This document shows, piece after piece, positions 17,409 through 63,290 of a DNA stretch of 64,000 bases; position 1 is the first letter of the stretch; each line of letters starts with the position of its first letter. Made by a program: the position numbers and the translations under genes. The notes under the pieces were generated by a model. The model ran no database searches. It was not told where the DNA came from and saw nothing but the letters and a program-made list of their open reading frames with translations. Origin of the DNA: an uncultured Solirubrobacterales bacterium (lineage in GTDB: Bacteria; Actinomycetota; Thermoleophilia; Solirubrobacterales; 70-9); assembly GCA_963729065.1 (NCBI GenBank), contig CAVSMS010000003.1:8005-72004 (forward strand), in the 5' to 3' direction.

Positions 17409-18422
17409 GTGCGCTGGGAAAATCTCGAGAAGGGAGCGAGCACGCAGGGGCTGCTGCCCGGGACCGGGGAGTCCACGGTCCGCACCTTCGACGCCCCCGA
17501 GGCGCTCGGGGTCCGCTTCCACGAGGTCGAGGCGCGCTCGGGACTCAACCGGGTGCCCAAGCAGTCGCGGATGCCGTTTCGGTGGACGATCAACGCATAT
17601 CGCGGCTGCACCCACGCCTGCGTCTACTGCTTCGCCCGGCCCACGCACACCTACCTGGACCTGAACGCGCGCGAGGACTTCGAGCGCGAGATCGTGGTCA
17701 AGGTCAATGTCCCGGAGCTCGTCCGGGCCGAGCTCGGGCGCCGGAGTTGGAAGGGCGAGCACGTCGCCCTCGGCACCAACACGGACCCGTATCAGTGGGT
17801 CGAGGGCCGGTACCGGCTGATGGAGGGGATCTGGGAGGCGATGCGCGACTACGCCAACCCGTGCTCGGTGCTGACCAAGTCGCCGCTGCTGCTGCGCGAC
17901 ATGGGCCTGATGAAGGAGATCTGCGCGCGAACCGAGTTCGTCGCCAACCTCTCGATCCCGACCCTCGAGGAGAAGGCGTGGCGGCAGACCGAGCCCCACA
18001 CGCCGCACCCGCGCAAGCGGATCGAGGCGGTCGCGGAGCTCAACAGGGCCGGGATCCCGACCGGGGTCCTGATCGCGCCCCTGATCCCCGGCGTCAACGA
18101 CGCCCCGGGGCAGGTCGAGGAGCTCGTCGCGCTCTGCGGCGAGGCGGGCGCGCAGAGCATCGGCGGGGTCGGGCTGCACCTGCGCGGCGAGGTGCGCGAG
18201 ATCTGGTTCGACTGGCTGCGCCAGTACCGCCCCGACCTGCTGCCGCGCTACCGCGAGCTCTATCGCCGCGGCGCCTACATGCCCTCCGAGGAGCGCGACC
18301 GGCTGGCCGCCCGCGCTCGCGGCGGGCGCCGACCGCGGCGCTTCACGGTCGAGCGCGGCACCCAGCGCGCGACGAAGGCGCGCGAGCGGCGCCTGCCCGC
18401 GCGCCAGACGAGCCTCTTCTGA
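17409..18422 (+). CDS. radical SAM protein (Rv2578c / SplB-like family)
   Basis: CxxxCxxC cluster motif (GCTHACVYC). Family-typical LGTNTDPYQ, SVLTKSPL and IAPLIPGVND. The start is taken at GTG (MRWENLEK). The 17289 start in the track would overlap the MarR gene. Confidence 0.8.
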   Translation: MRWENLEKGASTQGLLPGTGESTVRTFDAPEALGVRFHEVEARSGLNRVPKQSRMPFRWTINAYRGCTHACVYCFARPTHTYLDLNAREDFEREIVVKVNVPELVRAELGRRSWKGEHVALGTNTDPYQWVEGRYRLMEGIWEAMRDYANPCSVLTKSPLLLRDMGLMKEICARTEFVANLSIPTLEEKAWRQTEPHTPHPRKRIEAVAELNRAGIPTGVLIAPLIPGVNDAPGQVEELVALCGEAGAQSIGGVGLHLRGEVREIWFDWLRQYRPDLLPRYRELYRRGAYMPSEERDRLAARARGGRRPRRFTVERGTQRATKARERRLPARQTSLF

Positions 18423-34227: not shown

Positions 34228-36353
34228 GCCAACGCCTCCTTGACCCGCCCTGGGATCTCGTCGATCCGCTCGACGACCGGGATGCCGGCGGCCTCCAGGC
34301 GGGCGATCTTCTCGGTGGCCGAATCCTCCTTGCCCTCGACGATGGTGCCGGCGTGGCCGAAGCTCATCCCCTGCATCTCCTCGTCGTCCATGAACTTCCC
34401 GGCCATGAAGGCGACGATCGGCAGCCGCGAGCCGTTGGCCTCGCGCCAGTCGACCAGCTCGGCCTCCATCCGCCCGCCGGGCTCGGTGTAGATCACGATC
34501 GCCTCGGTCTGCTCGTCGGCCTCGAACAGCGGCATCAGCTCGGCGTAGGTGGAGCCGATGATCGCGTCGCCGCCGATGGAGACGGCGGTCGAGACGCCGA
34601 GGCCCGCGGCCGTGAGCGAGGAGGAGATCTCGGTGGTCATGCCGCCCGAGCGCGACATGACGCCGACGCGGCCGGGCTCGTAGGCCTTGCGGGCGTCCTT
34701 CGCCGGGCCGCCGATGCCGCCCATCTTGGCGACGCCGGGGGCGATCACGCCGAGGCAGTTCGGCCCGATGATCCGCGCCCCCCGCTCGTTCGCGAGCTCG
34801 ACCATCTGCGCGACGTCGCGGCGCGGGATGCGCTCGGTGACCACCACGATCAGCTTGATCCCGTTCTCGATCGCCTCCAGGACGGCGTCCTTGGTGAACG
34901 CGGGGGGGACGGTGACGACCGAGCCATCCGGGGCGGAGCCGTGGTGGTCGGCCACCTGCTCGACGGTGTCGAAGACGGGCACGCCGTGCACGTCGCGGCC
35001 CTTGCGGCCGGGCGTGACCCCGCCGACGATCTGCGAGCCGTAGTCGAGGCACTCCCGGGTCAGGTTCACGGCCTCGCGCCCGGTGATGCCCTGGACGATG
35101 AAGGTGAAGTCCTCGTTCAGGAGGATGCTCATCGCCGCACCACCCGCATCGCCCTGAATCTTGGCGACCGCCTCACCGGCCGCCTCCCACATCGACGTGT
35201 TGCGGTCGCGGAACTCGACGCCGTACTTGGAGAGGATCTTGGCGCCCTCCTCCTCCCACGCACCGGGAATCCTGAAGACGGCGATCGTCTCGGCCGGGTC
35301 CTTGCCGAGCTCGAGGCAGGCCTTGATCACGCCGCGCGCGACGATGTCGACCCGCGTGTTGGAGACGATCGACATCATCACCGCGATCTTCTCGACCCCG
35401 TCCTTGTTCAGGACCTCCATCGCGAGGCCCTTCGACTTCGCGACCGACGGGTTGCCGCCGATCTCGGCGTAGTTGGCGGGCTTGCCGCCCTGGGAGCGGA
35501 CCGCGTCGGTGAGCGTCAGCGAGCCGCCGCCGGCGCCGATCACGAGCCCGAGGTTGCCGCTGAAGCCGTGGTCCTTGCCCTGGATCACCCCGCGGTGGTC
35601 GGCGGCGTCGATCGCCTTGACGTTGCGCTCGAAGGCCGATGGCTCGTAGAGCTCTCGCGGCTCGTCGAGGTCGACGCCGATCTCCGAGAGCAGCTTGCGG
35701 TGGCGGCCGACCGCCTCGTCCTCCATCTCCATGTGGGCGTCGAGGGCGACGAAGGAACCGTCGGCGAGCCGCGCGAGCGGGTTGATCTCGGCGAGGGTCA
35801 TGTCGAAGTCGCGCTGCAGCCGGGCGAGGCGGGCGAGGACGGCCGTGGCGCGGTTGAGCTCCGAGCCGGTCATGCCGCAGCGGGCGACCGCCTGCTTGGC
35901 CTCGAAGTCGGCGACCGGGTGCAGGTTCGAGAGGTGCCCGCGCCCGACGTGGTCGGGGTGCTCGAGGGCGACCTGCTCGATGTCGATCCCGCCCATGTCG
36001 CTGAACAGCATCATCGGGCGCTTGGCGCGCCCGTCCCAGAGCACCGCGGCGTAGTACTCGTGCGCGACCTCGGCCTTCGGGTCGACCAGGACCCCGACCG
36101 GCATGTGCCCCCCGATCTCGAGCTCGAGGATCTGGGCCGCGTGCGCCTCGGCCTCCTCCGGGCTGTCGGCGAACTTCACCCCGCCGGCCTTCATCCGCCC
36201 GCCCGTGAGCACCTGCGACTTGATCACCGTCGGCCCGCCGATCCGCTCGGCGGCCTCGCGGGCCTCGGCCGCCGTGGTGGCGAAGCCGTAGTCGGTCACC
36301 GGGATTCCGGCCCGCTCGACGATCCGCCGTGATTCGTACTCGTAGAAGCGCAT
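34224..36353 (-). CDS. succinyl-CoA-synthetase-family acid-CoA ligase, beta(ATP-grasp)-alpha fusion
   Basis: Start MRFYEYESRRIVERAGIPV at 36353. The beta-like part ends ...KIQGDAGGAA. It runs in frame, with no stop, into the alpha-like part MSILLNEDFTFIVQGITG (Met codon 35130-35132). The alpha part carries SRSGGMTTE and the phosphohistidine motif SFGHAGTIV. Confidence 0.85.
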   Translation of the reverse strand: MRFYEYESRRIVERAGIPVTDYGFATTAAEAREAAERIGGPTVIKSQVLTGGRMKAGGVKFADSPEEAEAHAAQILELEIGGHMPVGVLVDPKAEVAHEYYAAVLWDGRAKRPMMLFSDMGGIDIEQVALEHPDHVGRGHLSNLHPVADFEAKQAVARCGMTGSELNRATAVLARLARLQRDFDMTLAEINPLARLADGSFVALDAHMEMEDEAVGRHRKLLSEIGVDLDEPRELYEPSAFERNVKAIDAADHRGVIQGKDHGFSGNLGLVIGAGGGSLTLTDAVRSQGGKPANYAEIGGNPSVAKSKGLAMEVLNKDGVEKIAVMMSIVSNTRVDIVARGVIKACLELGKDPAETIAVFRIPGAWEEEGAKILSKYGVEFRDRNTSMWEAAGEAVAKIQGDAGGAAMSILLNEDFTFIVQGITGREAVNLTRECLDYGSQIVGGVTPGRKGRDVHGVPVFDTVEQVADHHGSAPDGSVVTVPPAFTKDAVLEAIENGIKLIVVVTERIPRRDVAQMVELANERGARIIGPNCLGVIAPGVAKMGGIGGPAKDARKAYEPGRVGVMSRSGGMTTEISSSLTAAGLGVSTAVSIGGDAIIGSTYAELMPLFEADEQTEAIVIYTEPGGRMEAELVDWREANGSRLPIVAFMAGKFMDDEEMQGMSFGHAGTIVEGKEDSATEKIARLEAAGIPVVERIDEIPGRVKEALA

Positions 36354-36398
36354 GGCGCGGCGCGGGAGGCTAGTCGATCGGGCGATATCGTCGGCGCG

Positions 36399-37751
36399 GT
36401 GAAGGAGCGATCCGCGGACGTTGTCGTGGTCGGTGCGGGCCTTGCGGGGCTCGCCGCGGCGCGGGAGCTGGCCGCCTCCGGGCGGGACCCGATCGTGCTC
36501 GAGGCCCGCGACCGGGTCGGGGGCAGGACCCTGAACGAGCCGATCGGCGACGGCAAGGTGGTCGAGATCGGCGCCCAGTGGGTGGGCCCCACGCAGGATC
36601 GTGTGCTGGCGCTGATCCGCGAGCTCGGGCTCGAGACCTTCCCCACCTACGCCCGCGGGAAGAACATCTTCGAGCGCGAGGGCAAGCTCAGCGAGTACTC
36701 GGGCGCGATCCCGCGCGCCAACCCGGTCGGCCTCGCCGAGGTCGGGGTGGCGATGAAGCGGCTCAACCTGATGGCCGCCAAGGTCTCGCCCGAGGCGCCC
36801 TGGCGCGCGCCCAAGGCCGACCGCTGGGACTCCGAGACCTTCGCGACCTGGATGCGCCGCAACGTCCGCACCGAGGTCGCGCGCGACATCCTGCGGCTGG
36901 CGATCATCGGCGTCTGGGCGGCCGAGCCGCGCGACGTCTCCCTGCTGCACGTCCTCTTCTACATCCGCTCGGCCGGCTCATTGGAGATCCTCATCGGCAC
37001 CGAGGGCGGGGCCCAGCAGGACCGGGTGGTGGGCGGCACGCAGCTGATCTCGCTGCGGATGGCGGAGCAGCTCGGCCCGGTGGTCGAGCTGCAGACCCCG
37101 GTGCGCGCGATCCGCCACAGCGACGCCGGCGTGACCGTCGTCTCGGACCGGCTGGAGGTCAGCGCCCGCCGCGCGATCGTCGCGATTCCCCCGGCGCTCG
37201 CCGGGCGGATCGCGTACGAGCCGGCGCTGCCGGCGGTGCGCGACGGCCTCTCGCAGCGGATGGCGCAGGGCAGCGTCGTCAAGTGCATGGCCGTCTACGA
37301 GCGCCCGTTCTGGCGCGAGCGCGGGCTCTCCGGGGCCGTGACCAGCGTCAGCGGGCCGGTCTCGGTGGGGTTCGACAACTCGCCCCCGGACGGCTCGCCC
37401 GGCGTGCTGCTCGGGTTCCTCGAGGGCCAGGCGGCGCGCGAGGCCGCCGACCTCACCCGCGACGAGCGCCGCCGCCTGGTCGCCGAGTGCTTCGGGCGCC
37501 TCTTCGGCCCCGAGGCGGCACAGCCGATCGACTACGTCGACCGCGCCTGGGGCGCCGATCCCTGGTCGCGCGGCTGTTACGGCGGGTTCATGCCGACCGG
37601 CGCCTGGACGGACTACGGCGCGGCGCTGCGCGAGCCGATCGGCCCGATCCACTGGGCCGGCGCCGAGACCGCCGTGGTCTGGAACGGCTACATGGACGGC
37701 GCCGTCGGCTCCGGCCGGGACGCCGCCCAAGCGGCGCTCGCCAGCCTCTAG
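36399..37751 (+). CDS. flavin-containing amine oxidase (putrescine-oxidase-like)
   Basis: GTG start. FAD motif VVVVGAGLAGLAAARELA..LEARDRVGGRT. The IGAQWVGPTQDRVLALIRELGL pattern and the C-terminal HWAGAETA...GYMDGAV match flavin monoamine oxidases. Confidence 0.9.
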   Translation: MKERSADVVVVGAGLAGLAAARELAASGRDPIVLEARDRVGGRTLNEPIGDGKVVEIGAQWVGPTQDRVLALIRELGLETFPTYARGKNIFEREGKLSEYSGAIPRANPVGLAEVGVAMKRLNLMAAKVSPEAPWRAPKADRWDSETFATWMRRNVRTEVARDILRLAIIGVWAAEPRDVSLLHVLFYIRSAGSLEILIGTEGGAQQDRVVGGTQLISLRMAEQLGPVVELQTPVRAIRHSDAGVTVVSDRLEVSARRAIVAIPPALAGRIAYEPALPAVRDGLSQRMAQGSVVKCMAVYERPFWRERGLSGAVTSVSGPVSVGFDNSPPDGSPGVLLGFLEGQAAREAADLTRDERRRLVAECFGRLFGPEAAQPIDYVDRAWGADPWSRGCYGGFMPTGAWTDYGAALREPIGPIHWAGAETAVVWNGYMDGAVGSGRDAAQAALASL

Positions 37752-50001: not shown

Positions 50002-51079
50002 GTGGGGCGCGGCGTCGACCCGGCGCGGCTGGCGCGCCTGCGCGGGGCCTCGCAGCGCCTGCACCGCCCGGCGGCCGTCCGCCATCCGGCCGACGTCGCC
50101 CGGCTCGCCGGGCCGGTCCAGGCGCAGGAGCCGCGCGCCGCGAAGCTCGCCTTTCGCGCCCGCGCGCGCGGCCTCGTCGCGGCCGACGTCGACCGGGCGC
50201 GGACCGAGGAGCGCTCGCTGCTGCGCGCCTGGATGATGCGCAGGACCGTCCACCTGATCGCGACCGAGGACGCCGGCTGGCTGCTGCCGCTGTTCTCGGA
50301 GACGATCGTGCGGCTGGCGCGCAAGCGGCTCGCCGACTTCGGACTCGACCGCCGCGGGCAAGACCGCGCCCTGGCGGTCGCTGCACGGCGCGGTCGACGC
50401 CGACGGCGCCCTGACCCGCCCCGAGCTCGCCGAGCGCCTCGAGCGGGAGGGGTTCGACACCGCGAACGAGTTCAAGGTCCACCTGTGGGTGCTGGCGACG
50501 CTCGACGGCGAGCTCTGCCTCGGGCCCGACCGGGGCGGGCAGACGTGCCTCGTGCGCGACCGCCGACTGGATCGGCGAACCGCAGCGCCGGTCGCGCGAG
50601 GACTCGCTCGCCGAGCTCGCGCGCCGCTACCTCCGCGGCTACGCGCCCGCGGACGAGCGCGACCTCGCCCGCTGGGCGGGCCTGCCGCTGCGCGACGCGA
50701 GGCTCGGGTTCGACCGGATCGCGGACGAGCTCACCCCGCCGGCGGGCTGTTCGTGCTCGGCCGGCCGCCGCGGGTCGCGCGGTCGCCGGTGGTGCGAATG
50801 CTGGGCGGGTTCGACAACTACAACCTCGGCTACGTCGACCGCGGCTTCGCGCTCGCCCCGGAGTTCGAGAAGCGCGTGAACCCGGGCGGCGGGATCGTGC
50901 GCCCGTCGATCGTCGTCGACGGCCGCTGCGTCGCCACGTGGTCGTCCAAGCGCAGCGGCGAGCGGCTCGCGGTGACGATCGAGCCCTTCGAGCCGCTGGC
51001 GCCCGAGATCGCCGAGGCGATCGCCGCCGAGGCCGAGGACGTCGGGCGCTTCGAGGCCCTCACCGCGACCATCGCCTGA
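50002..51079 (+). pseudogene. winged-helix DNA glycosylase-like protein (YcaQ / AlkZ family, DUF1006), 3 frameshifts
   Basis: Segments: LRGASQRLHRP...VQAQEPRAAKLAFRAR...RSLLRAWMMRRTVHL (frame 1). Then HGAVDADGALTRPELAERL...HLWVLATLDGELCLGP (frame 2). Then WIGEPQRRSREDSLAELARRYLRGYAPADERDLARWAGLP (frame 0). Then RMLGGFDNYNLGY...GGIVRPSIVVDGRCVATW (frame 2). The switches are near 50380, 50568 and 50745. Confidence 0.7.
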
Positions 51080-51696: not shown

Positions 51697-52683
51697 TCAG
51701 CCCGTCGCGATCAGCTCGGCGACCGACTCGAGCGCGGCGTCGAAGTCGGTCCGCGGCAGGCCGCCGATCCCGGGAGAGACCGCGCCCGCGTCGCGATAGC
51801 GGCGGACCGCGGCGTGCACCTCCTCGGGGCCGCCGATGCCGGCCAGCTCGCCGAGCATCCGGTCCGAGAGCCCGGCCTTGGCGCGCTCGATGTCCCCGGC
51901 GGCCATGCCCTCGTCGAAGGCGGCGATCTCGTCGCCGAACCCCGACGCCTCGAGCATCGCCCGGTAGAACGGCAGCGAGGCGTAGGGCACGAGGTCCTGG
52001 CGCAGCGCGGCCCGCGCCGCGTCCGGGTCGTCGGTGAGCGCCACGGGGACGGCGGCCACGACGTCGAAGCCGTCGCCACTGCGCCCGGCCTTCTCGAACC
52101 CCGCGCGAAGCGCGGGAATGACCGTGTCGCGGATGTACGACGGACAGCAGAGCCACAGCATCACTCCGTCGGCCAGCTCGGCGGCGAGCCGGATCATGTT
52201 CGGCGACAGCGCCGCGACGTAGATCGGCAGGTCGGGTCGGGCCGAGTAGCCCATGAACGCGAACTTGGTCGGGAAGCGCTCGGAGTCGGGCGGGGTATCC
52301 CCGCGGAGGATCGCGCGAACGGCCTCGAGGTATTCGCGCATCTGTGTCACCGGCTTGTCGATCTTCGCCCCGTGCCAGTTCTCGACCGTGACCCGGTGCG
52401 AGACCCCGAGGCCGAGGACCATTCGCCCGCCCGAGTGCTCGTCGATCGTGGCCGCCGTCTGCGCCATGGTCGCCGGGGTGCGGGTGAAGATCGGCACCAC
52501 GCCGGTGCCGAGCCTGATCCGCTCGCTGACCCCGGCGTAGGCCATGAGCGTCGTGAGCGAGTCGCGCCCGGCGATGTGGGTGGTGTACGCGGCGTCGTAG
52601 CCGAGCCGGTCGGCGAGCGCCACCCGGTCGAGTGTGCGCTCCAGCGAGCGGCCCGGCGAGATGAAGGCGCTGATCCCGGCCAC
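51697..52683 (-). CDS. LLM-class (luciferase-like) flavin/F420-dependent oxidoreductase
   Basis: 328-aa intact ORF. Family pattern GYDAAYTTHIAGRDSLTTLMAYAG...RIRLGTGVVPIFTRTPATMAQTAATIDEHSGGRMVLGLGVS. Confidence 0.85.
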   Translation of the reverse strand: MAGISAFISPGRSLERTLDRVALADRLGYDAAYTTHIAGRDSLTTLMAYAGVSERIRLGTGVVPIFTRTPATMAQTAATIDEHSGGRMVLGLGVSHRVTVENWHGAKIDKPVTQMREYLEAVRAILRGDTPPDSERFPTKFAFMGYSARPDLPIYVAALSPNMIRLAAELADGVMLWLCCPSYIRDTVIPALRAGFEKAGRSGDGFDVVAAVPVALTDDPDAARAALRQDLVPYASLPFYRAMLEASGFGDEIAAFDEGMAAGDIERAKAGLSDRMLGELAGIGGPEEVHAAVRRYRDAGAVSPGIGGLPRTDFDAALESVAELIATG

Positions 52684-56524: not shown

Positions 56525-57085
56525 TCAGCTCAGCTCGCCCGGCAAGAGCGAGTACATGAGCATGTCGCGGCGTCTGCCGCCGACGTGCATGAACGACCTC
56601 AGCAGCCCCTCGCGCGAGAAGCCGACGGTCTCGGCGACCCGCAGCGAGGCCGCGTTGCCGGGCTCGATCCAGAGCTCGATCCTCTTCACGCCGAGCTCGG
56701 CGAACGCGTATCCGCACAGCAGGCCCAGCCCCCGCCGGGCGACGCCGCGACGGCGCTCGTCGGCGGCGACCCAGTAGCCGGCCGAGCACCGGCCGCTCTC
56801 GGGGTCGAGGTTGTGGAGGGCGACCGCGCCGAGCAGGCGCCCGTCGGTGGCGTCGACGATCAGCGTCGGTAGCTCGGTGCCGGTGCGAAGCCCGGTGCTC
56901 GCCATCCGCTGCCACTGGCGAGCCTCCTCCTCGCCGTAGGCGTCGGGGACCCGGGTGTAGCGCGGGATCTCGGGATCCTGGACGGCGGCCACGATCGCCG
57001 GGACGTCCGCCTCGCTCATCAGCCGCAGGGTGACGACGCCGTCGCTGAGCCCCTCGACCGGGAACTCGATCCGCACGCGGGTCAT
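56525..57085 (-). CDS. GNAT N-acetyltransferase (RimJ/RimL-like)
   Basis: Start MTRVRIEF overlaps the upstream stop (ATGA). The pattern is VTLRLMSEADVPAI...GYWVAADERRRGVARRGLGLLCGYAFAELGVKRIELWIEPGNAASLRVAETVGFSREG. Confidence 0.85.
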   Translation of the reverse strand: MTRVRIEFPVEGLSDGVVTLRLMSEADVPAIVAAVQDPEIPRYTRVPDAYGEEEARQWQRMASTGLRTGTELPTLIVDATDGRLLGAVALHNLDPESGRCSAGYWVAADERRRGVARRGLGLLCGYAFAELGVKRIELWIEPGNAASLRVAETVGFSREGLLRSFMHVGGRRRDMLMYSLLPGELS

Positions 57086-58008
57086 CGCCCCGCACCGGCC
57101 AGGTCCGCCGCGACCTGCCGCGCGGCTGCCACCGGGTCGGCCGACAGCGGCGGCGTGCCCACCTCCTCGACCAGCACCGGGGCCGCGCCGGGGCCGCCGA
57201 GGCGCAGGGCGACCAGGCCGGCGAGGCCGCGCAGCTCGGCGACGTGGGGGCGGAGCGCGTCGGCCGTCGCCGCGGCGAGCACGACCAGCCGCGCGTCGAG
57301 CCGCTCCGCGGTCTGCGCGGCGCTCTCGATCGGCGTGTCCTGGCCGAGGTAGGCGATCCGCCAGCCGCGGGCTCGCAGCGCGAGCCCGAAGGCGATCAGC
57401 CCGAGGTCGTGCTGCTCGCCGGGCGGGCAGGCGAGCACCGCGAGCGGGCCGGTGCCGGCACCCCAGCCGCGGGCGAGCGCGACCAGGCGGGCTCGGATCA
57501 GGTTGCTCGCGAAGTGCTCCTCGCCGATGCCGACCTCGCCGCTCGCCCACCGCCGGCCGATCTCGCGCATCGCGGCGAGCATCACGTCCGCCAGCAGGGC
57601 GTCGAGTGAGAGCGCCGCGCCGGCGCGATCGAGGATCGCGTTCGCGCGGGCGTCGTCGAGCGTCGCCAGCGCCTCGGCGAGCTCGCCCGCCGCCGGGGCG
57701 ACGGTCGCCGGCGCCGGCGCACCACTCCCGTCCACGCTCGCGCCCGCGCCGGGTTCGGCGGCCTCGGCGTCGAGCAGGGAGCGCGCCGCCTCGCCCGTGG
57801 CGACGCCACCGGCGATGAGCTCGCGCATCGCGCGCACCCGGCGCTCGTCGGCCGGCGAATAGAGGCGGAAGCCGCCCGGCGAGCGCTCGGGCCGCAGGAG
57901 GCCGTACCGGCGCTCCCAGGCTCGCAGGGTGTCGACGCCGACCCCGGTGCGCCGCGAGAGCTCACCGATCCGAACGCGCCCGCTCGACGTAGGAAGCCCG
58001 GGGCTCAT
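57082..58008 (-). CDS. MerR-family regulator with B12-binding domain (CarH/LitR-type light sensor)
   Basis: N-terminal MerR HTH (RIGELSRRTGVGVDTLRAWERRYGLL). W-x9-E-H motif (WASGEVGIGEEH). E-x-H-x-x-G (EQHDLG), followed by a Rossmann-like B12-binding fold. Confidence 0.85.
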   Translation of the reverse strand: MSPGLPTSSGRVRIGELSRRTGVGVDTLRAWERRYGLLRPERSPGGFRLYSPADERRVRAMRELIAGGVATGEAARSLLDAEAAEPGAGASVDGSGAPAPATVAPAAGELAEALATLDDARANAILDRAGAALSLDALLADVMLAAMREIGRRWASGEVGIGEEHFASNLIRARLVALARGWGAGTGPLAVLACPPGEQHDLGLIAFGLALRARGWRIAYLGQDTPIESAAQTAERLDARLVVLAAATADALRPHVAELRGLAGLVALRLGGPGAAPVLVEEVGTPPLSADPVAAARQVAADLAGAGR

Positions 58009-58017
58009 GGCATAAGT

Positions 58018-58099
58018 TGGACGAACACTTGACAGAACCGAGCCTAAACGGTTATCGTCGCCGGGTCAATCTCGACGAACTCTGGACAAACACCTGACA
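58018..58099. promoter_or_regulatory. two 17-nt direct repeats plus sigma70-like promoter in the litR / SDR divergent spacer
   Basis: TGGACGAACACTTGACA (58018-58034) and TGGACAAACACCTGACA (58083-58099) match at 15 of 17 positions. The first contains TTGACA (58029-58034), followed 18 nt later by TATCGT (58053-58058). Confidence 0.45.
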
Positions 58100-58165
58100 T
58101 CAACTCCCAAATCCCGCCCGTACGGCGCCCGGTCGCTGCTCGACCGGGCGCTCGACGTCGCCGTC

Positions 58166-59131
58166 GTGCCCGGTTACGGCCGGCCCGGCTACCGGCTGCG
58201 GTCGGGCGCCTGGGGCGCGGTCGCCGACGACTCGCTGATCGCGGGTGGCGACGTGCTGGTCACCGGTGCCAGCGCGGGGATCGGCGAGGCGGCCTGCGCC
58301 GAGCTCGCGGCCCACGGCGCCCGCGTGCACATGGTCGCCCGCGACCGCGGGCGGCTCGAGGCGTCAGCTGAGCGGGTCGCGGCCCGGCTGGCGCCCGGAT
58401 CCCGCGGCGGGGTCGAGACCTGGACCTGCGACGTCTCCGACCTCGCGGCGGTGCGCGCCTTCGCCGCCCGCTTTCGCGAGCGGGATCTCGACCTGCGCGG
58501 CGTGCTCCACAACGCCGGGGTGCTCGTCGACGAGCGCCGCCGGACCGCCCAGGGCCACGAGCTGACCCTCGCCACCCACGTGCTCGGGCCGTTGCTGCTC
58601 AGCGGGCTGGTGGCCCCGCAGCTGCGCGCCGGCGCCCCGAGCCGGATGGTCTTCGTCTCCTCGGGCGGGATGTACACGTCCGGCTTGCGAGCCGACGACG
58701 TCGAGCTCGACGCCGAGCCCTTCGACGGCCCGCGCTTCTACGCGCACGCCAAGCGGCTGCAGGTCCTGGTCGCCGAGATGCTCGCGGAGCGCTGGCGTGG
58801 CGACGCGATCGCCGTCTACTCGATGCACCCCGGATGGGTGCGGACCGGGGGGCTCGACGCCTCCCTGCCCCGGTTCGCGCGGCTCGCCCGCCCGCTGCTG
58901 AGGACCCCGGCGCAGGGGGCCGATACCGCCGTCTGGCTGCTCGCCTCGCGGGAGGCGCCGCGGGCGCCGAGCGGCTTCTGGCACGACCGGCGCGCGCGCC
59001 CCGAGCACCGGCTGCCGTGGACCCGCGCGGACGCGGCCGAGGGCGAACGCGTCCTCGACGAGCTGATCCGCCTGAGCGGCTTCGACGACCGACGGCGCGA
59101 GGCCCGGGCCGGCTCGGCTCCCCCGGCGTGA
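58166..59131 (+). CDS. SDR-family oxidoreductase
   Basis: TGxxxGxG motif (VLVTGASAGIGEA), NAG, and YAHAK (YxxxK). The same frame is open and protein-like upstream to 58016 (LLDRALDVAVVPGY) with no canonical start, so the true start is uncertain. Confidence 0.8.
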   Translation: MPGYGRPGYRLRSGAWGAVADDSLIAGGDVLVTGASAGIGEAACAELAAHGARVHMVARDRGRLEASAERVAARLAPGSRGGVETWTCDVSDLAAVRAFAARFRERDLDLRGVLHNAGVLVDERRRTAQGHELTLATHVLGPLLLSGLVAPQLRAGAPSRMVFVSSGGMYTSGLRADDVELDAEPFDGPRFYAHAKRLQVLVAEMLAERWRGDAIAVYSMHPGWVRTGGLDASLPRFARLARPLLRTPAQGADTAVWLLASREAPRAPSGFWHDRRARPEHRLPWTRADAAEGERVLDELIRLSGFDDRRREARAGSAPPA

Positions 59132-61119
59132 GCCGGGTTGCGATCGTCGGGGCCGGCGTCGCCGGGATGGTCGCCGCGCGCGAGCTCGACCGCGCCGGCC
59201 ACCGGATCACGCTGTTCGAAGCCGGCGCGCGGCCCGGCGGGCACGCGAACACGGTCACCGTCGAGACGCCCGGCGGGATCTGGGACGTCGACACCGGCTT
59301 CATCGTCTACAACGACCGCAACTACCCCGGCTTCGAGCGCCTGCTGGACGAGCTCGCGGTCGAGACCAAGCCGGCCGAGATGTCGCTGTCCGTATCCGAC
59401 GGCCGTGGCGGCTTCGAATGGTCCTCGCGGCCGCTGGGCGTCTTCGCGCGGCCGGCCCACCTCGCCGATCCGCGCTTCCACCGGATGATCGCCGACCTGG
59501 CGCGCTTCTTTCGCGAGGCCCGCGACCTCGTCGGGACAAACGGCTCCGGGCCCTCGCTCGGCGACTTCCTCGACCGCGGCGGGTACTCGCGCTGGTTCGT
59601 CGAGCGCCTGCTGATCCCGCAGACCTCGGCCGTCTGGTCGGCGGACCCGGACCAGCTCTGGGATTTCCCGGCGAGCTTCCTGGCGGAGTTCCTCGCCAAC
59701 CACGGGGCCCTGCAGTTCCTCGGCCGGCCGCGGTGGCGCACGGTCTGCGGCGGGTCGCGCGTGTACGTCGATCGGCTCACCGCGCCCTTCGCCGACCGGA
59801 TGCGGCTCGGGGTCGCGGTGACGGACGTGCGGCGTGACGCGGCCGGGGTCGAGCTTCGCTGGCGCGGCGGGTCCGAGCGCTTCGACGAGGTCGTCCTCGC
59901 GGTCCACTCCGACCAGGCCCTGGCGATGCTCGCCGATCCCTCGCCGGCCGAGCGCGAGGTGCTCGGTGCGATCCCGTACGTGCGCAACGAGGCCGTGCTG
60001 CACACGGACGTCCGGCTGCTCCCGCGGCGGCGCCGCGCCTGGGCCTCGTGGAACTGCCACCTGCTCGACGAGGCCGTCGGTCGGACGACGATCACCTACC
60101 ACATGAACCGCCTGCAATCGCTGCGCGCCGACCGCGAGTTCCTCGTCACCCTCAACCTCGCCGATCGCATCGACCCGGCGACCGTGATCGACACGTACAC
60201 CTACGACCACCCGGTCTACACCCGCGCCGGGCTCGCGGCGCAGGGCCGATGGGCGGAGATCAGCGGCGTTCGCCGCACCCACTACTGCGGCGCGTACTGG
60301 CGCTGGGGCTTTCACGAGGACGGCGTCTGGAGCGCGCAGCGCGCGTGCGATGCGATCGCTGCGCCCGGCACGATCGCGGAGCCCGAGCTCGCGGTGGGCG
60401 GCATGAGCGCCTCGGCCCTGTATGAGGGGTGGGTCGCGCACCGGCGGCTGGAGCCGGTGGAGCACAGCTTCCGCTATCGCATCGCGATGCCGCTGCTCGA
60501 CCTCGACGAACTGCCGGACGTTCTCGACCGCCATCCGCTGTGGTCGGCGCGCCGGCCGGCGCTGATGCGCTGGCGCCGCGAGGACTTCCTCGGCGATCCC
60601 GAGCGGCCGCTGGCCGAGGCGGCCCGCGAGCTTGTCCGCGAGCGGATCGGCTCCGCGCCCTCGGGGCCGGTGCGCCTGCTCGCCGGGTTGCGCTTCGCCG
60701 GGCACGCCTTCAACCCGATCAGCCTCCTGTACCTGCACGGGGAGAGCGGGGAGGTGGAGGCCGTGATCGCCGAGGTGACCAACACCCCGTGGGGAGAGCG
60801 TCACGCCTATGTGCTCGAGGGCGATCGAGGGACGGTCGCCAAGCGGATGCACGTCTCGCCGTTCATGGGCACGGAGCAGAGCTACCGCGTGGTCGCCTCC
60901 GAGCCGGGCTCGCGGCTCGCGCTGCGGATCACGAACGTCGAGGAGGGCCGCGCGGTGCACGAGGCGGCGCTCAGCCTGCAACGCGTCGAGCTCAGCCGCC
61001 GCTCGATGACGCGGGCGATGCTCGCCTATCCGGCAGCGGGCCTGACGACCCTGGCGCGGATCTACTCCCACGCCGCGCGCCTGCGGCTCAAGGGCCTACG
61101 AACCGTCCCGCACCACTAG
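59128..61119 (+). CDS. FAD-dependent oxidoreductase (amine-oxidase fold) fused in frame to a DUF1365 domain
   Basis: GTG overlaps the SDR stop (GTGA). VAIVGAGVAGMVAARELDRAGHRITLFEAGARPGGH and the C-terminal HYCGAYWRWGFHEDG belong to the oxidoreductase part. From Met 60403 (MSASALYEGWVAHRRLEPVEHSFRYRIAMPLLDLDELP...) the sequence is DUF1365-like. There is no stop between the two parts. Confidence 0.8.
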   Translation: MSRVAIVGAGVAGMVAARELDRAGHRITLFEAGARPGGHANTVTVETPGGIWDVDTGFIVYNDRNYPGFERLLDELAVETKPAEMSLSVSDGRGGFEWSSRPLGVFARPAHLADPRFHRMIADLARFFREARDLVGTNGSGPSLGDFLDRGGYSRWFVERLLIPQTSAVWSADPDQLWDFPASFLAEFLANHGALQFLGRPRWRTVCGGSRVYVDRLTAPFADRMRLGVAVTDVRRDAAGVELRWRGGSERFDEVVLAVHSDQALAMLADPSPAEREVLGAIPYVRNEAVLHTDVRLLPRRRRAWASWNCHLLDEAVGRTTITYHMNRLQSLRADREFLVTLNLADRIDPATVIDTYTYDHPVYTRAGLAAQGRWAEISGVRRTHYCGAYWRWGFHEDGVWSAQRACDAIAAPGTIAEPELAVGGMSASALYEGWVAHRRLEPVEHSFRYRIAMPLLDLDELPDVLDRHPLWSARRPALMRWRREDFLGDPERPLAEAARELVRERIGSAPSGPVRLLAGLRFAGHAFNPISLLYLHGESGEVEAVIAEVTNTPWGERHAYVLEGDRGTVAKRMHVSPFMGTEQSYRVVASEPGSRLALRITNVEEGRAVHEAALSLQRVELSRRSMTRAMLAYPAAGLTTLARIYSHAARLRLKGLRTVPHH

Positions 61120-61128
61120 GGCCTCGGC

Positions 61129-63290
61129 TCAGTCGTCGGGGTAGACGCAGGTCATTCCGCCCGCGCCGGTGATCGCCGCGACTCGCGCTGGCGTTGCGGA
61201 ACTCGATGAACCCAAGGCCCATCTCGTGCTTGTCGCCGTCCTGGAAGACGATCGTGCCCGCGAACGGCAGGCCCGGCGGAGCCCAGAGTGTCGTTGCCGT
61301 AGGGCGTCCCGGCGGGCCGTCGATGATCACCTCGGGATCCGGCCCGCCGTAGGGGATCTCGTAGTCGTGGAACCCTGAGAAGTTCGAGATCCCGACCTCC
61401 AGCCGCCAGGCGCCGTCGGTGGAGATCGCGGTGAAGCCACCCGGGCCCTCGGTGCAGTCGCCGATCTTGAAGCTGGCCACGGGCGTCGTGCTCTCGGGGT
61501 CGTCGAAGATCATGATCCCCGCCGCGGCGCCGGGCAGGACTCGCCGTCCTCGCGGGCGAGCGGGCGCGCCGTGGGGGTGGTCGTGCAGGTCCCCGGGCCT
61601 GGACCCTCGCCCGGGCCCGGCCTGGGCTTCTTGCAGTAGTCCTTGAGCTTCACGCCCTCGAAGCTTGACCACGCGCTTCTTGAACGGGTCGCTGAAGCCG
61701 ATGAACGATGCAGCGCCGACCTGCGGGAGCTGCAGGTTGGTCTGCGTCTGGCACTTGCAACCGCCGGGGATGGCGCAGTAGGCGCCCTTGGCGAGCTTGC
61801 GGGTGTTGCCGTTGGTGCGCAACTCGCCGCGGATGTCCTTGTCGGCGCCGATGATCAGCACGTCGGCCGTTAGCTGGAGGGCGAAGCCGTCGGAGCTGCG
61901 CGCCTCGATCGGGCGGGACTGCCGCTGCCCGTGCCGATCTTGACCGCCTCGGGTTTGGTGGTCGGGATGCCCGGTCCCTCGTAATTCCACTCAGGCCCCT
62001 GGCCGGCGTCGCGAATCAGCCCGGGGCCCCACCGCTGCCAGAAGACGTCCGGGAAGCCCCGCGGTCGCCCGAGCGAAGGCCGCCTGGGGCCCGCCGCGTG
62101 GAGGCGAAGAGGGTGTCGCGCATCCGCTGCCAGCCGTCGACGCCGGTCTGGTTGATCATCGCGAAGAACCCGACCCCCGAGTAGCTGCGACCAAAGAGGT
62201 CGAACTCGGGCAGCTTGAGCCACGGGTTCCAGTCGGCCTCCTCGACCGAGTCGCCGAGTTCCTGGACCGTCATCCCGCCGAGCCAGTCCGCGCCGCCCTC
62301 GATCACCCAGGCCGGGGCCTAGGCGATCTGGTCGGCTGGTGGTGAAGAAGGCGTGCTGCGCGCAGTGCGCGAGCTCGTGCGCGTAGACAAACTCCTGGAT
62401 CGCCGGCGTCGGCCGCGCGGCCGAACTTGGTCATGAAGATGTTGCAGGTCGGCGATTCGCCCGGGGGCAGGTCGTCGTAGGGGACGTAGGCATAGACCTT
62501 CTTGCCCTTGACCACCTTGTCGGTTCGAGGAACGAGACCGAGATCGGGCGCAGCAGCGCGTAGCCGTGCGAGCGCATGACGTTGCGGGCGTTTCGAATGT
62601 GCTCGAGCGCGATGATCTGCTCGTCGACGGTGCCGCCGCTGACCGTGATCTCGTCTCCCGCCCGGCGGTCGGCTCGCGGGCGCGAGCGTACGCCACGCGG
62701 GGGTCGATCCGCGCCGCCGCCGCGTCGTCGACGGGGATCGTGAGCGCGTCGGTCGCCGGGGTGGTCGACCGCGTCGAGCACCTTGCGCTGCTGCTTGGAG
62801 AGCTTCTTCGGCTGGGCCTGGAGGGCCGCGAGCACGAAGGTGGGGTCGCCGAGCTTGCCGATCTGCACCTGTCTGCGGCTTCACCCCCGGCAGGTCGGCG
62901 ATCCGGTGTCGAACGCCGCGAGCGCGTCTGTCGAGCGAGACCTGCCCCTGCTTGTCGATCAGCACCGGCTCGGGCCCGCGGAGCTGCTTGATGCTCGCCT
63001 TGCGCAGCGCCCTTCTTGCACGAGAGCCCGGGCGCACGTAGTCGTCCTGGTAGCCTTCTTGCACTTGTCGCCCTTGCGCAGGCAGGCGTTGCGGCCGTCG
63101 ACGATCGCCTTGGTGCACTTCTTCGCCGAGGCGGCGGTACGCGCCCCGGCGCCGCCGCTCGGCGGGGGCGATCATCAGCACGGCGGCGAACAGCGCCGCG
63201 ACGCCGAGCCGACAGGCGACCCGACCTACTTCCCCGCCAGGCAGAAGCGAACACGGCGCGGAGCCTATTGCCCGCCCTCGGTCGAGGCAA
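61129..63290 (-). pseudogene. relic of a secreted HEXXH zinc metalloprotease (many frameshifts, one in-frame TAG)
   Basis: Recognisable segments hop between all three frames. They include the signal peptide VACRLGVAALFAAVLMIAPA and the Cys-rich KKCTKAIVDGRNACLRKGDKCKK. Next come VQIGKLGDPTFVLAALQAQPKKLSKQQRKVLDAV, GDEITVSGGTVDEQIIALEHIRNARNVMRSHGYALLRP and KVVKGKKVYAYVPYDDLPPGESPTCNIF. The catalytic region is QEFVYAHELAHCAQHAFF, followed by WVIEGGADWLGG. The C-terminal beta domain ends VAAITGAGGMTCVYPDD-stop at 61129. The in-frame TAG is at 62319-62321. Confidence 0.65.

Follow-up and report, generated by a model that had tools for sequence, protein, structure and literature searches.

A 64-kb stretch of DNA from an uncultured Solirubrobacterales bacterium (contig CAVSMS010000003.1; hereafter the window, by which we mean the whole stretch analyzed; G+C content 70-75%) carries, toward its right-hand end, a gene for a regulator of the CarH/LitR family of adenosylcobalamin (AdoCbl) photoreceptors. 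Across a 157-bp spacer, and divergent from this gene, begins a run of genes for a short-chain dehydrogenase/reductase (SDR), a flavin adenine dinucleotide (FAD)-dependent oxidoreductase and a DUF1365 protein. The latter two resemble UfaD and UfaO, enzymes of furan fatty acid synthesis in Rhodobacter. On the evidence of the sequence, we predict that carH and the SDR/UfaD-like/UfaO-like operon form a light-responsive regulatory unit of this bacterium. In Table 1, we list the genes of the locus and its predicted control elements.

Table 1. Genes and predicted control elements of the carH locus (positions are those of the window)
Feature	Position	Strand	Basis
GNAT acetyltransferase gene	56525-57085	-	Pfam Acetyltransf_3, 4.5e-24
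carH/litR, homologue of class I AdoCbl-type photoreceptor repressors, 308 amino acids	57082-58008	-	Pfam, CarH structure match, TransRegCarH
Candidate operator site 1, three tandem 11-bp direct repeats (gctcATGGCAT aagtTGGACGa acacTTGACAg)	58003-58035	+	19.3 bits
Predicted rightward promoter P_R of the SDR operon (TTGACA 58029-58034, 18-nt spacer, TATCGT 58053-58058)	58029-58058	+	promoter scan
Predicted leftward promoter P_L of carH (-35 TTGACC 58069-58064, 17-nt spacer, -10 TAGGCT 58046-58041)	58041-58069	-	by eye
Candidate operator site 2, three tandem 11-bp direct repeats (aatcTCGACGa actcTGGACAa acacCTGACAt)	58068-58100	+	31.5 bits
SDR-family oxidoreductase, operon gene 1 (likely start)	58136-59131	+	Pfam adh_short, 1e-19
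UfaD-like FAD-dependent oxidoreductase, amine-oxidase fold	59128-60402	+	Pfam Amino_oxidase + NAD_binding_8
GG, against a single G in close relatives	60393-60394	+	alignments with L001, L003, L081; run X3 contigs
UfaO-like DUF1365 protein, 238 amino acids from ATG 60403	60403-61119	+	Pfam DUF1365, 2.6e-65

The nearest public relatives of the window are metagenome-assembled Solirubrobacterales genomes (Thermoleophilia, Actinomycetota). With the flavoprotein-DUF1365 sequence as query and one genome per species, we collected 80 related loci, almost all of them from this order. In each locus (approximately 18 kb) genes were called, the proteins were clustered and representatives were annotated by Pfam. 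Three relatives recur below: L001 and L003, which are 90% and 80% identical to the window in the flavoprotein region, and the contig L081 (334 kb), approximately 95% identical to the window at the nucleotide level. Public DNA runs contain at most 14% of the locus words and therefore do not cover the source strain itself, and an exact-protein look-up with the window CarH matched no record. Within the window, Pfam was run on 50 open reading frames (ORFs), which are most but not all of the gene calls of the 64 kb.

Judged by its sequence, the regulator is a genuine homologue of the CarH/LitR-type AdoCbl photoreceptors. It has a MerR helix-turn-helix (HTH) domain (MerR_1/MerR) at amino acids 13-77 (nucleotides 57778-57972; MerR_1 1.8e-14), a B12-binding_2 domain at amino acids 109-178 and a B12-binding domain at amino acids 190-274. 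The first-pass annotation, made from the sequence alone, had credited the protein with a MerR HTH and with both signatures of AdoCbl light sensors, and this reading is borne out. The W-x9-EH motif, which in this family caps the adenosyl group, is WASGEVGIGEEH (amino acids 154-165, nucleotides 57514-57549), and the ExHxxG motif, whose His serves as the lower axial ligand, is EQHDLG (amino acids 198-203, nucleotides 57400-57417). Structures of Thermus thermophilus CarH match the protein over its full length (3whp, E-value 9e-36; 5c8d, E-value 2e-35). In the alignment, WASGEVGIGEEH pairs with WHRGEIGVAEEH and GEQHDLG with GERHEIG of T. thermophilus CarH, and the MerR domain pairs with the CarH DNA-binding domain, RxWERRYG and PGGxRLYS included. 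The motifs GxxW, EH, GxxH and GxxxP have been proposed as a light-responsive signature (PMC11796333). GxxW (as GRRW) and GxxxP (as GQDTP) are both found in the window CarH, and GxxW, W-x9-EH, E/DxHxxG and GxxxP are invariant in 44 of 44 homologues from the related loci (approximately 45-90% identity), bar one E-to-D change. Among NCBIfam models, TransRegCarH matches the protein best by far (2e-47), at 161.8 bits against an equivalog cut-off of 400; we therefore read it as a member of the class I CarH/LitR family and not as an equivalog of the characterized proteins. The window CarH is predicted to bind AdoCbl and to respond to light. The carH and GNAT genes overlap by an ATGA at 57082-57085, as read from the sequence, and are translationally coupled; the GNAT gene is presumably co-transcribed with carH. 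This carH-GNAT arrangement is common to L001, L003 and L081 only.

CarH tetramers bind tandem 11-bp direct repeats of the form nAnnTnnACAn over the promoter, three in Thermus and four in Bacillus (PMC8156234). Does the spacer contain such repeats? A loose pattern (GACRNNNNNNNGACA) occurs five times in the window against 5.5 expected, with three of the five occurrences in the spacer; it was superseded by a position-weight matrix. The matrix draws on 133 repeat units, all from spacers next to carH, in 40 distant loci; the window, L001 and L003 were left out. The unit reads A-C-n-y-T-g-G-A-C-A-g, with a T-n-G-A-C-A core in each operator, and agrees with nAnnTnnACAn at T5 and at A8-C9-A10. When both strands of the entire window were scanned for tandem triplets of the unit, the two top scores, 31.5 bits (site 2, z approximately 7) and 19.3 bits (site 1), were both in the spacer; the best score outside it was 1.2 bits, and the background was -68 ± 14. 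With leave-one-out matrices, 54 of 54 loci (approximately 18 kb each) had their top match no more than 90 nt upstream of carH, and always in one orientation. All 89 matches that score 12 bits or more across the 80 loci fall within the carH spacer, and no operator of at least 12 bits was found upstream of the photolyase genes of relatives.

Site 1, whose position is conserved in 31 anchored spacers, spans the carH start codon and leader as well as the -35 box of the predicted rightward promoter P_R; the TTGACA of this box is itself the third repeat of the site. P_R is a sigma-70-type promoter with 10 of 12 consensus matches, where none is expected in shuffles of the region, and its TTGACA-N17/18-TAnnnn pattern is kept across related spacers. 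Site 2 adjoins the -35 box of the predicted leftward promoter P_L and covers approximately +3 to +35 of P_R. In the 31 anchored spacers, the P_L columns GTCAA and CTA are partly conserved (consensus "cgtcaA" and "Cta", in approximately 50-70% of sequences). This arrangement suggests that P_R and P_L, if correctly placed, are interdigitated and divergent, and that the operator at the -35 region of either one also covers the early transcript of the other. The predicted transcription starts are near 58065 (+) and 58034 (-).

The first gene of the rightward operon scores as an SDR at 58166-59131 (+) (adh_short, 1e-19), and its nearest NCBIfam models are PRK06196/PRK06197-type oxidoreductases. The conserved SDR N-terminus LLDRALDVAVVPGY is encoded upstream of the first canonical start, GTG 58166, which is the start in the ORF list. 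An in-frame codon at 58136, CTG in the window and in L003 and TTG in L001, is the likely start. This suggests a non-canonical CTG start or else an N-terminally shortened SDR protein. The GTG at 59128 is the start of the flavoprotein gene and forms a GTGA overlap with the SDR stop; in all 80 related loci the alignment begins at residue 1-3 of this start. The flavoproteins of relatives are approximately 425 amino acids long and end at the TGA of an ATGA junction with the DUF1365 gene, whose start at ATG 60403 is conserved in relatives. As it stands in the window, the ORF ending at 61119 has the Amino_oxidase/NAD_binding_8 and DUF1365 domains in one frame, the latter matching a near-full profile (2.6e-65). 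The first-pass annotation had described an SDR gene divergent from the regulator and next to it a single flavoprotein/DUF1365 ORF. The divergent SDR and both domains stand, by Pfam; the fusion probably does not. A start of the long ORF at 58834 is rejected, as the 98 codons from there fall inside the SDR gene in a different frame.

The fusion hinges on one base. An extra G at 60393/60394 (CGCGGTGGGC in the window, CGCGTGGGC in L081) joins the flavoprotein and DUF1365 frames into 663 amino acids; with GG at this position the stop is lost from the flavoprotein frame. The extra G lies 9-10 nt upstream of an ATGA stop/start overlap that is still present at 60403-60406. The FAD and DUF1365 genes are separate in 76 of 79 related loci, most with a 4-nt GTGA/ATGA stop-start overlap. 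Protein P0001 from L081, whose flavoprotein is 98% identical, is a 425-amino-acid flavoprotein alone, and L081 encodes CarH (308 amino acids), SDR (321), FAD protein (425) and DUF1365 protein (238) all separately. Over the interval 55.8-61.1 kb, the window and L081 differ by no indel other than the extra G; two contigs of the public metagenome run X3, approximately 97% identical, also have one base fewer at 60393. Two neighboring genes, one for an AlkZ-like DNA glycosylase (50002-51076) and one for a 713-amino-acid hypothetical protein (61181-63156), are intact in L081 and frameshifted in the window, where each is spread over three frames by at least two frameshifts. Conversely, a luciferase-like gene is frameshifted in L081 and intact in the window (51697-52683). 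Since each assembly has frameshifts in genes that are intact in the other, both seem to carry consensus indel errors, and caution is needed over any ORF boundary or "fusion" in the window.

With neighboring genes of the window frameshifted in this way, the fusion is most likely an assembly error as well, and the native state would be two genes coupled by the ATGA overlap. Were the +1 frameshift real, the product would be a 663-amino-acid bifunctional UfaD-like/UfaO-like protein that could channel the diene intermediate between its active sites. The window ORF runs uninterrupted from 59128 to 61119, both domains are intact and linked via the natural C-terminal tail, and the loci L005 and L040 and the proteins P0002 (1149 amino acids, FAD+DUF1365+CMAS), P0004 and P0009 also read as fused. 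Eukaryotic cyclopropane synthases, too, have a similar FAD domain fused to a methylase. We nevertheless consider a real fusion unlikely, given the single base on which it turns, the retained overlap and the frequent indel errors of the assembly. The remaining "fusions" likewise come from metagenome assemblies, and the fused form is not kept in close relatives or in independent sequence, as a natural fusion should be. Resting on one base of a draft-quality assembly, the "fusion" is unfit for annotation. As read, the metagenome assemblies behind L040, L005, P0004 and P0009 show FAD-DUF1365, SRPBCC-FAD-DUF1365 or FAD-DUF1365-CMAS fusions.

What might the two enzymes do? In Rhodobacter sphaeroides, UfaD (RSP1091, 430 amino acids) desaturates a methylated 18:1 acyl chain, and the DUF1365 protein UfaO (RSP1090, 250 amino acids) inserts O2, forming the furan ring (PMC7380195, PMC3546557). 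The methylase UfaM is unlinked in this species and adjoins a photolyase gene (PMC3546557), and in R. palustris ufaD-ufaO-ufaM are contiguous and enough for furan fatty acid synthesis (PMC7380195). These papers agree with the first-pass remark that the domain set accompanies genes like those for cyclopropane-fatty-acid (CFA) synthase, belongs to a singlet-oxygen regulon and is linked to furan fatty acids. Our locus has the same succession of an approximately 430-amino-acid FAD protein and an approximately 250-amino-acid DUF1365 protein (425 and 238 amino acids in L081), and the window pair is approximately 40% identical, over full length, to pairs of Proteobacteria, ChrR-linked ones of Alphaproteobacteria among them, and of Mycobacteriales. 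From the domain pair, the sizes, the gene order and the context, we infer a probable orthology to Rhodobacter UfaD and UfaO. The regulators that stand beside such pairs elsewhere include an extracytoplasmic function (ECF) sigma factor with ChrR on a Rhizobium tropici plasmid and SigK with an anti-sigma factor on a Tsukamurella plasmid; the pair on a Rhodococcus plasmid has no obvious regulator alongside.

The related loci share a common layout: carH on one strand and, on the other, genes for two small membrane proteins (in many loci), SDR, an SRPBCC/Polyketide_cyc2 protein, the FAD protein, the DUF1365 protein and CMAS (CFA synthase, PF02353). Of the loci, 68 have sufficient flanking sequence, and CarH lies upstream in 51 of these. 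The genes from carH to the flavoprotein gene form a co-directional, uninterrupted run in 40 of the 51; the other 11 have a second MerR-type gene, together with a gene on the opposite strand, between SDR and the flavoprotein genes. In Conexibacteraceae-type loci (L012, L041, L046, L054, L055, L062, L072, L076), the second MerR gene (approximately 244 amino acids, HTH only) follows the SDR gene, and an opposite-strand HD-domain or WS/DGAT gene precedes the SRPBCC-FAD-DUF1365-CMAS genes. Where there is such a second MerR gene, the control of the lipid genes by CarH may be indirect, via a cascade through this second regulator. The two small predicted membrane proteins (approximately 75 and 61 amino acids), encoded between carH and SDR, start the operon in L025, L027-L030, L032, L036, L042, L052, L053, L060 and others; they have no Pfam match and are absent from the window. 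Where they come first, the last operator repeat extends into their ribosome-binding site. Loci of cultured Solirubrobacter species and relatives (L073, L080, L075, L064) have FAD-DUF1365(-CMAS) genes without a nearby CarH, preceded by a wax-ester synthase/DGAT gene, so the linkage to CarH is clade-specific within the order.

A CMAS gene (1e-74) lies directly 3' of the DUF1365 gene in 36 loci (21 of them have CarH, 15 lack it), and the resulting FAD-DUF1365-CMAS order is the ufaD-ufaO-ufaM order of R. palustris. A photolyase gene, together with an NmrA-like gene, is found beside carH in approximately 16 loci. Pfam detects no CMAS, carotenoid or photolyase gene among the 50 window ORFs. The first-pass annotation had reported all three as missing; this holds for the scanned ORFs of the window, but of the relatives many have the methylase gene directly downstream and some have the photolyase gene next to carH. 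When a relative's CMAS was used as query, there was no match on the long contigs of L081, L001 and L003 among the best 120 matches listed.

We propose the following mechanism. In the dark, CarH would bind AdoCbl, oligomerize and occupy both operators of the spacer. At site 1 it would cover the P_R -35 box and the carH leader; at site 2 it would adjoin the P_L -35 box and cover the first approximately 35 nt transcribed from P_R. With the sites so placed, both the carH-GNAT unit and the SDR/UfaD-like/UfaO-like unit would be repressed. Light would photolyze the cofactor and take the repressor off the DNA, and both transcription units would be expressed. The enzymes would then most likely introduce double bonds and oxygen into membrane acyl chains; the resulting furan-type or similar oxidized fatty acids would protect from photo-oxidative damage. 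To the regulatory part, repression of the operon by CarH through the two repeat sites and its relief by light, we give a probability of about 0.6. That the product is a furan fatty acid we put at less than even odds.

Several observations weigh against this proposal. The locus was not found in the public RNA runs searched. P_L is a weak consensus match, below detection by the promoter scan, that was picked by eye, and the conserved A of the repeat unit is at position 1, versus position 2 in the T. thermophilus consensus. As for the enzymes, Rhodobacter UfaD is active only on methylated acyl chains (PMC7380195), while CMAS is lacking among the scanned window ORFs and downstream in 29 of 50 CarH-linked loci, the window's clade included; this leaves the product in doubt unless there is an unlinked UfaM. 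Moreover, deletion of the SDR gene and of the other accessory genes leaves furan fatty acids in Rhodobacter unaffected (PMC7380195). Could the regulation be as proposed, then, and the SDR, (SRPBCC,) FAD and DUF1365 proteins act on another hydrophobic substrate with no need of a methylase, for example in the repair or detoxification of photo-oxidized lipids? The frequent absence of CMAS would fit, and so would the constancy of the SDR and the SRPBCC lipid-binding protein, the most constant partners of the pair. The SDR and the small protein that Rhodobacter can spare for furan fatty acids would have their role elsewhere, and the authors of the UfaD/UfaO work leave open other oxidation roles for DUF1365 (PMC7380195). 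Set against this are the UfaD/UfaO pathway, which is the only biochemistry for the FAD/DUF1365 pair, the 36 relatives with CMAS in ufaD-ufaO-ufaM order, and the precedent of R. sphaeroides, where UfaM is unlinked too (PMC3546557). We regard another substrate as a real possibility, at clearly less than even odds.

The remaining alternatives concern the regulator and its target. Both candidate operators are near carH, site 1 over its start codon, and they might serve carH autoregulation only, with the SDR operon constitutive or under other control. The 11 relatives in which a second MerR-type gene and an opposite-strand gene split SDR from the flavoprotein genes point the same way, since the flavoprotein genes there are not in the CarH-proximal transcript. 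This is improbable for the window, however: the sole strong sigma-70-type promoter of the spacer is directed rightward with a site 1 repeat as its -35 box, site 2 lies in the early transcribed region of P_R, the last repeat reaches the ribosome-binding site of the first rightward gene in several relatives, and SDR adjoins CarH divergently in approximately 45 loci. More improbable still is that the regulator is a CarA-like MerR repressor, B12-independent or light-insensitive, with a residual B12-binding fold. Myxococcus xanthus CarA has a B12 motif and does not need B12 (PMC8156234), and the B12-binding domain of the window protein scores exactly at the Pfam cut-off (32.1 bits). Its TransRegCarH score, short of the equivalog cut-off, also counts here against our proposal. 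Yet every residue connected with AdoCbl photochemistry (the Trp and Glu-His of W-x9-EH, the lower-ligand His, and those of GxxW and GxxxP) is present, and invariant in the 44 homologues, and the operator consists of direct repeats, as bound by CarH tetramers, with no palindrome. Least probable is an ordinary CarH-carotenoid unit in which the flavoprotein is a CrtI-type carotenoid desaturase and the other crt genes lie elsewhere, the outcome that the first-pass annotation had named as refuting its proposal. The amine-oxidase fold is common to phytoene desaturases, and there are weak NCBIfam matches to crtI_fam and CrtD. With all carotenoid-desaturase models, however, the match is confined to the dinucleotide-binding motif (residues approximately 3-80) and scores 25-29 bits, where the cut-offs are 238-580; crtI_fam (29.1 bits, cut-off 238.1) and CrtD (28.9 bits, cut-off 580) cover only the N-terminal Rossmann stretch, residues approximately 3-62. 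There is no crt gene in the scanned window ORFs or in the annotated conserved neighbor families of the 80 loci, and the flavoprotein, like UfaD, is constantly paired with DUF1365. By these scores we rejected the CrtI-type identity.

How does a CarH-controlled lipid module compare with known systems? Like the CarH of T. thermophilus, B. megaterium and M. xanthus and the class I LitR of Streptomyces and Thermus, the window regulator has a MerR HTH, a four-helix bundle with W-x9-EH and a Rossmann B12 domain with ExHxxG, in this order. Its candidate operator, too, consists of 11-bp direct repeats with an ACA core, three in tandem over a -35 box, and its gene is divergent from the predicted target operon; autoregulation is likely. 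The window system differs in that its predicted target is an SDR/UfaD-like/UfaO-like lipid module and not carotenoid synthesis, that there are two separate triple-repeat sites on interdigitated divergent promoters, that the A of the repeat is shifted by one position, and that the host is a member of Thermoleophilia. Our literature searches on CarH with cyclopropane, furan and fatty-acid neighborhoods turned up no account of an SDR/FAD/DUF1365 module with a class I CarH, and the characterized B12-dependent CarH/LitR regulators that we could find all control carotenoid genes.

Other sensors have been connected to similar genes. In Pseudomonas putida and P. mendocina, the class II LitR proteins have no B12 Rossmann domain, are thought not to bind B12, and control light-inducible genes including phrB and ufaM (PMC9758184, citing Sumi 2020); the conserved pplR1/pmlR1 region also has genes for an SDR, an FAD-dependent oxidoreductase and hypothetical proteins (PMC9758184). 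A LitR/CarH-family MerR regulator (PplR1/PmlR1) adjoins an SDR, FAD oxidoreductase, UfaM and photolyase set there as well, but one member works with a LOV protein, whereas the window regulator keeps a complete AdoCbl sensor. In Rhodobacter, the module belongs, together with photolyase, to the core sigma-E/ChrR singlet-oxygen regulon (PMC3546557). The genes concerned (RSP1091-1087; photolyase and UfaM at RSP2143-2144) include those for the approximately 430-amino-acid FAD protein, the approximately 250-amino-acid DUF1365 protein, an SDR, a small protein and CMAS; the operon is divergent from the regulator genes and protects from photo-oxidative stress (PMC3546557, PMC7380195). Unlike the window system, the sensor there is an anti-sigma factor for singlet oxygen and control is positive, by sigma release and not by derepression; the window proteins are only approximately 40% identical to the proteobacterial ones. 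The Mycobacteriales cluster on the Tsukamurella plasmid, from another actinobacterial order, has the FAD-DUF1365-methyltransferase core with an ECF sigma/anti-sigma pair (SigK and its anti-sigma factor) alongside and no MerR/B12 protein. In Vibrio cholerae, blue light induces a CFA-synthase-like gene, and ChrR/sigma-E and a MerR-type regulator mediate the light response (PMC5241685). Sensor and output module are thus each known; what is predicted to be new is their combination, a B12-dependent class I CarH on this module, and this pairing, CarH-type operators included, recurs in approximately 50 loci of the order. The first-pass annotation had called light/B12 control of such a module a new wiring, and this would hold for the B12-dependent class I sensor; light control by the LitR family as such is already published for Pseudomonas (PMC9758184).

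A few further features of the window and of L081 may be mentioned. A second, unrelated amine-oxidase-fold flavoprotein is encoded at 36333-37751 (+) (Amino_oxidase full-length, 4e-75); its ORF overlaps the 5' end of a large opposite-strand ATP-grasp/CoA-ligase gene, so its true start is further in. Rfam and tRNA scans of the window gave no match, and with the Rfam scan empty we take the window to have no cobalamin riboswitch. In L081, approximately 3.5 kb past the right end of the window, there is a fragment with a methylmalonyl-CoA mutase domain (17521-18393). This AdoCbl-dependent family hints at adenosylcobalamin use by the organism.

It is possible to extend the proposal beyond this locus, at greater risk. 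In much of Solirubrobacterales, a B12 photoreceptor might switch on furan-type or oxygenated membrane fatty acids as the photoprotectant instead of carotenoids. The module might have been captured independently, in different phyla, by AdoCbl-CarH, class II LitR (one with a LOV photoreceptor), ChrR/sigma-E and SigK/anti-sigma, and so be a universal output of bacterial photo-oxidative defense. We offer this extension as a speculation that may well prove wrong. The predicted operator and promoter layout at 58003-58100 is a compact target that is directly testable, and the predicted CarH-operator pair is a natural candidate for optogenetic tools in high-GC Gram-positive bacteria. If the proposal is true, AdoCbl photoreception would also govern membrane fatty-acid chemistry, and it would do so in a poorly studied and very abundant soil lineage; one conserved photoprotection module would then have been re-wired to differing light and singlet-oxygen sensors across phyla.

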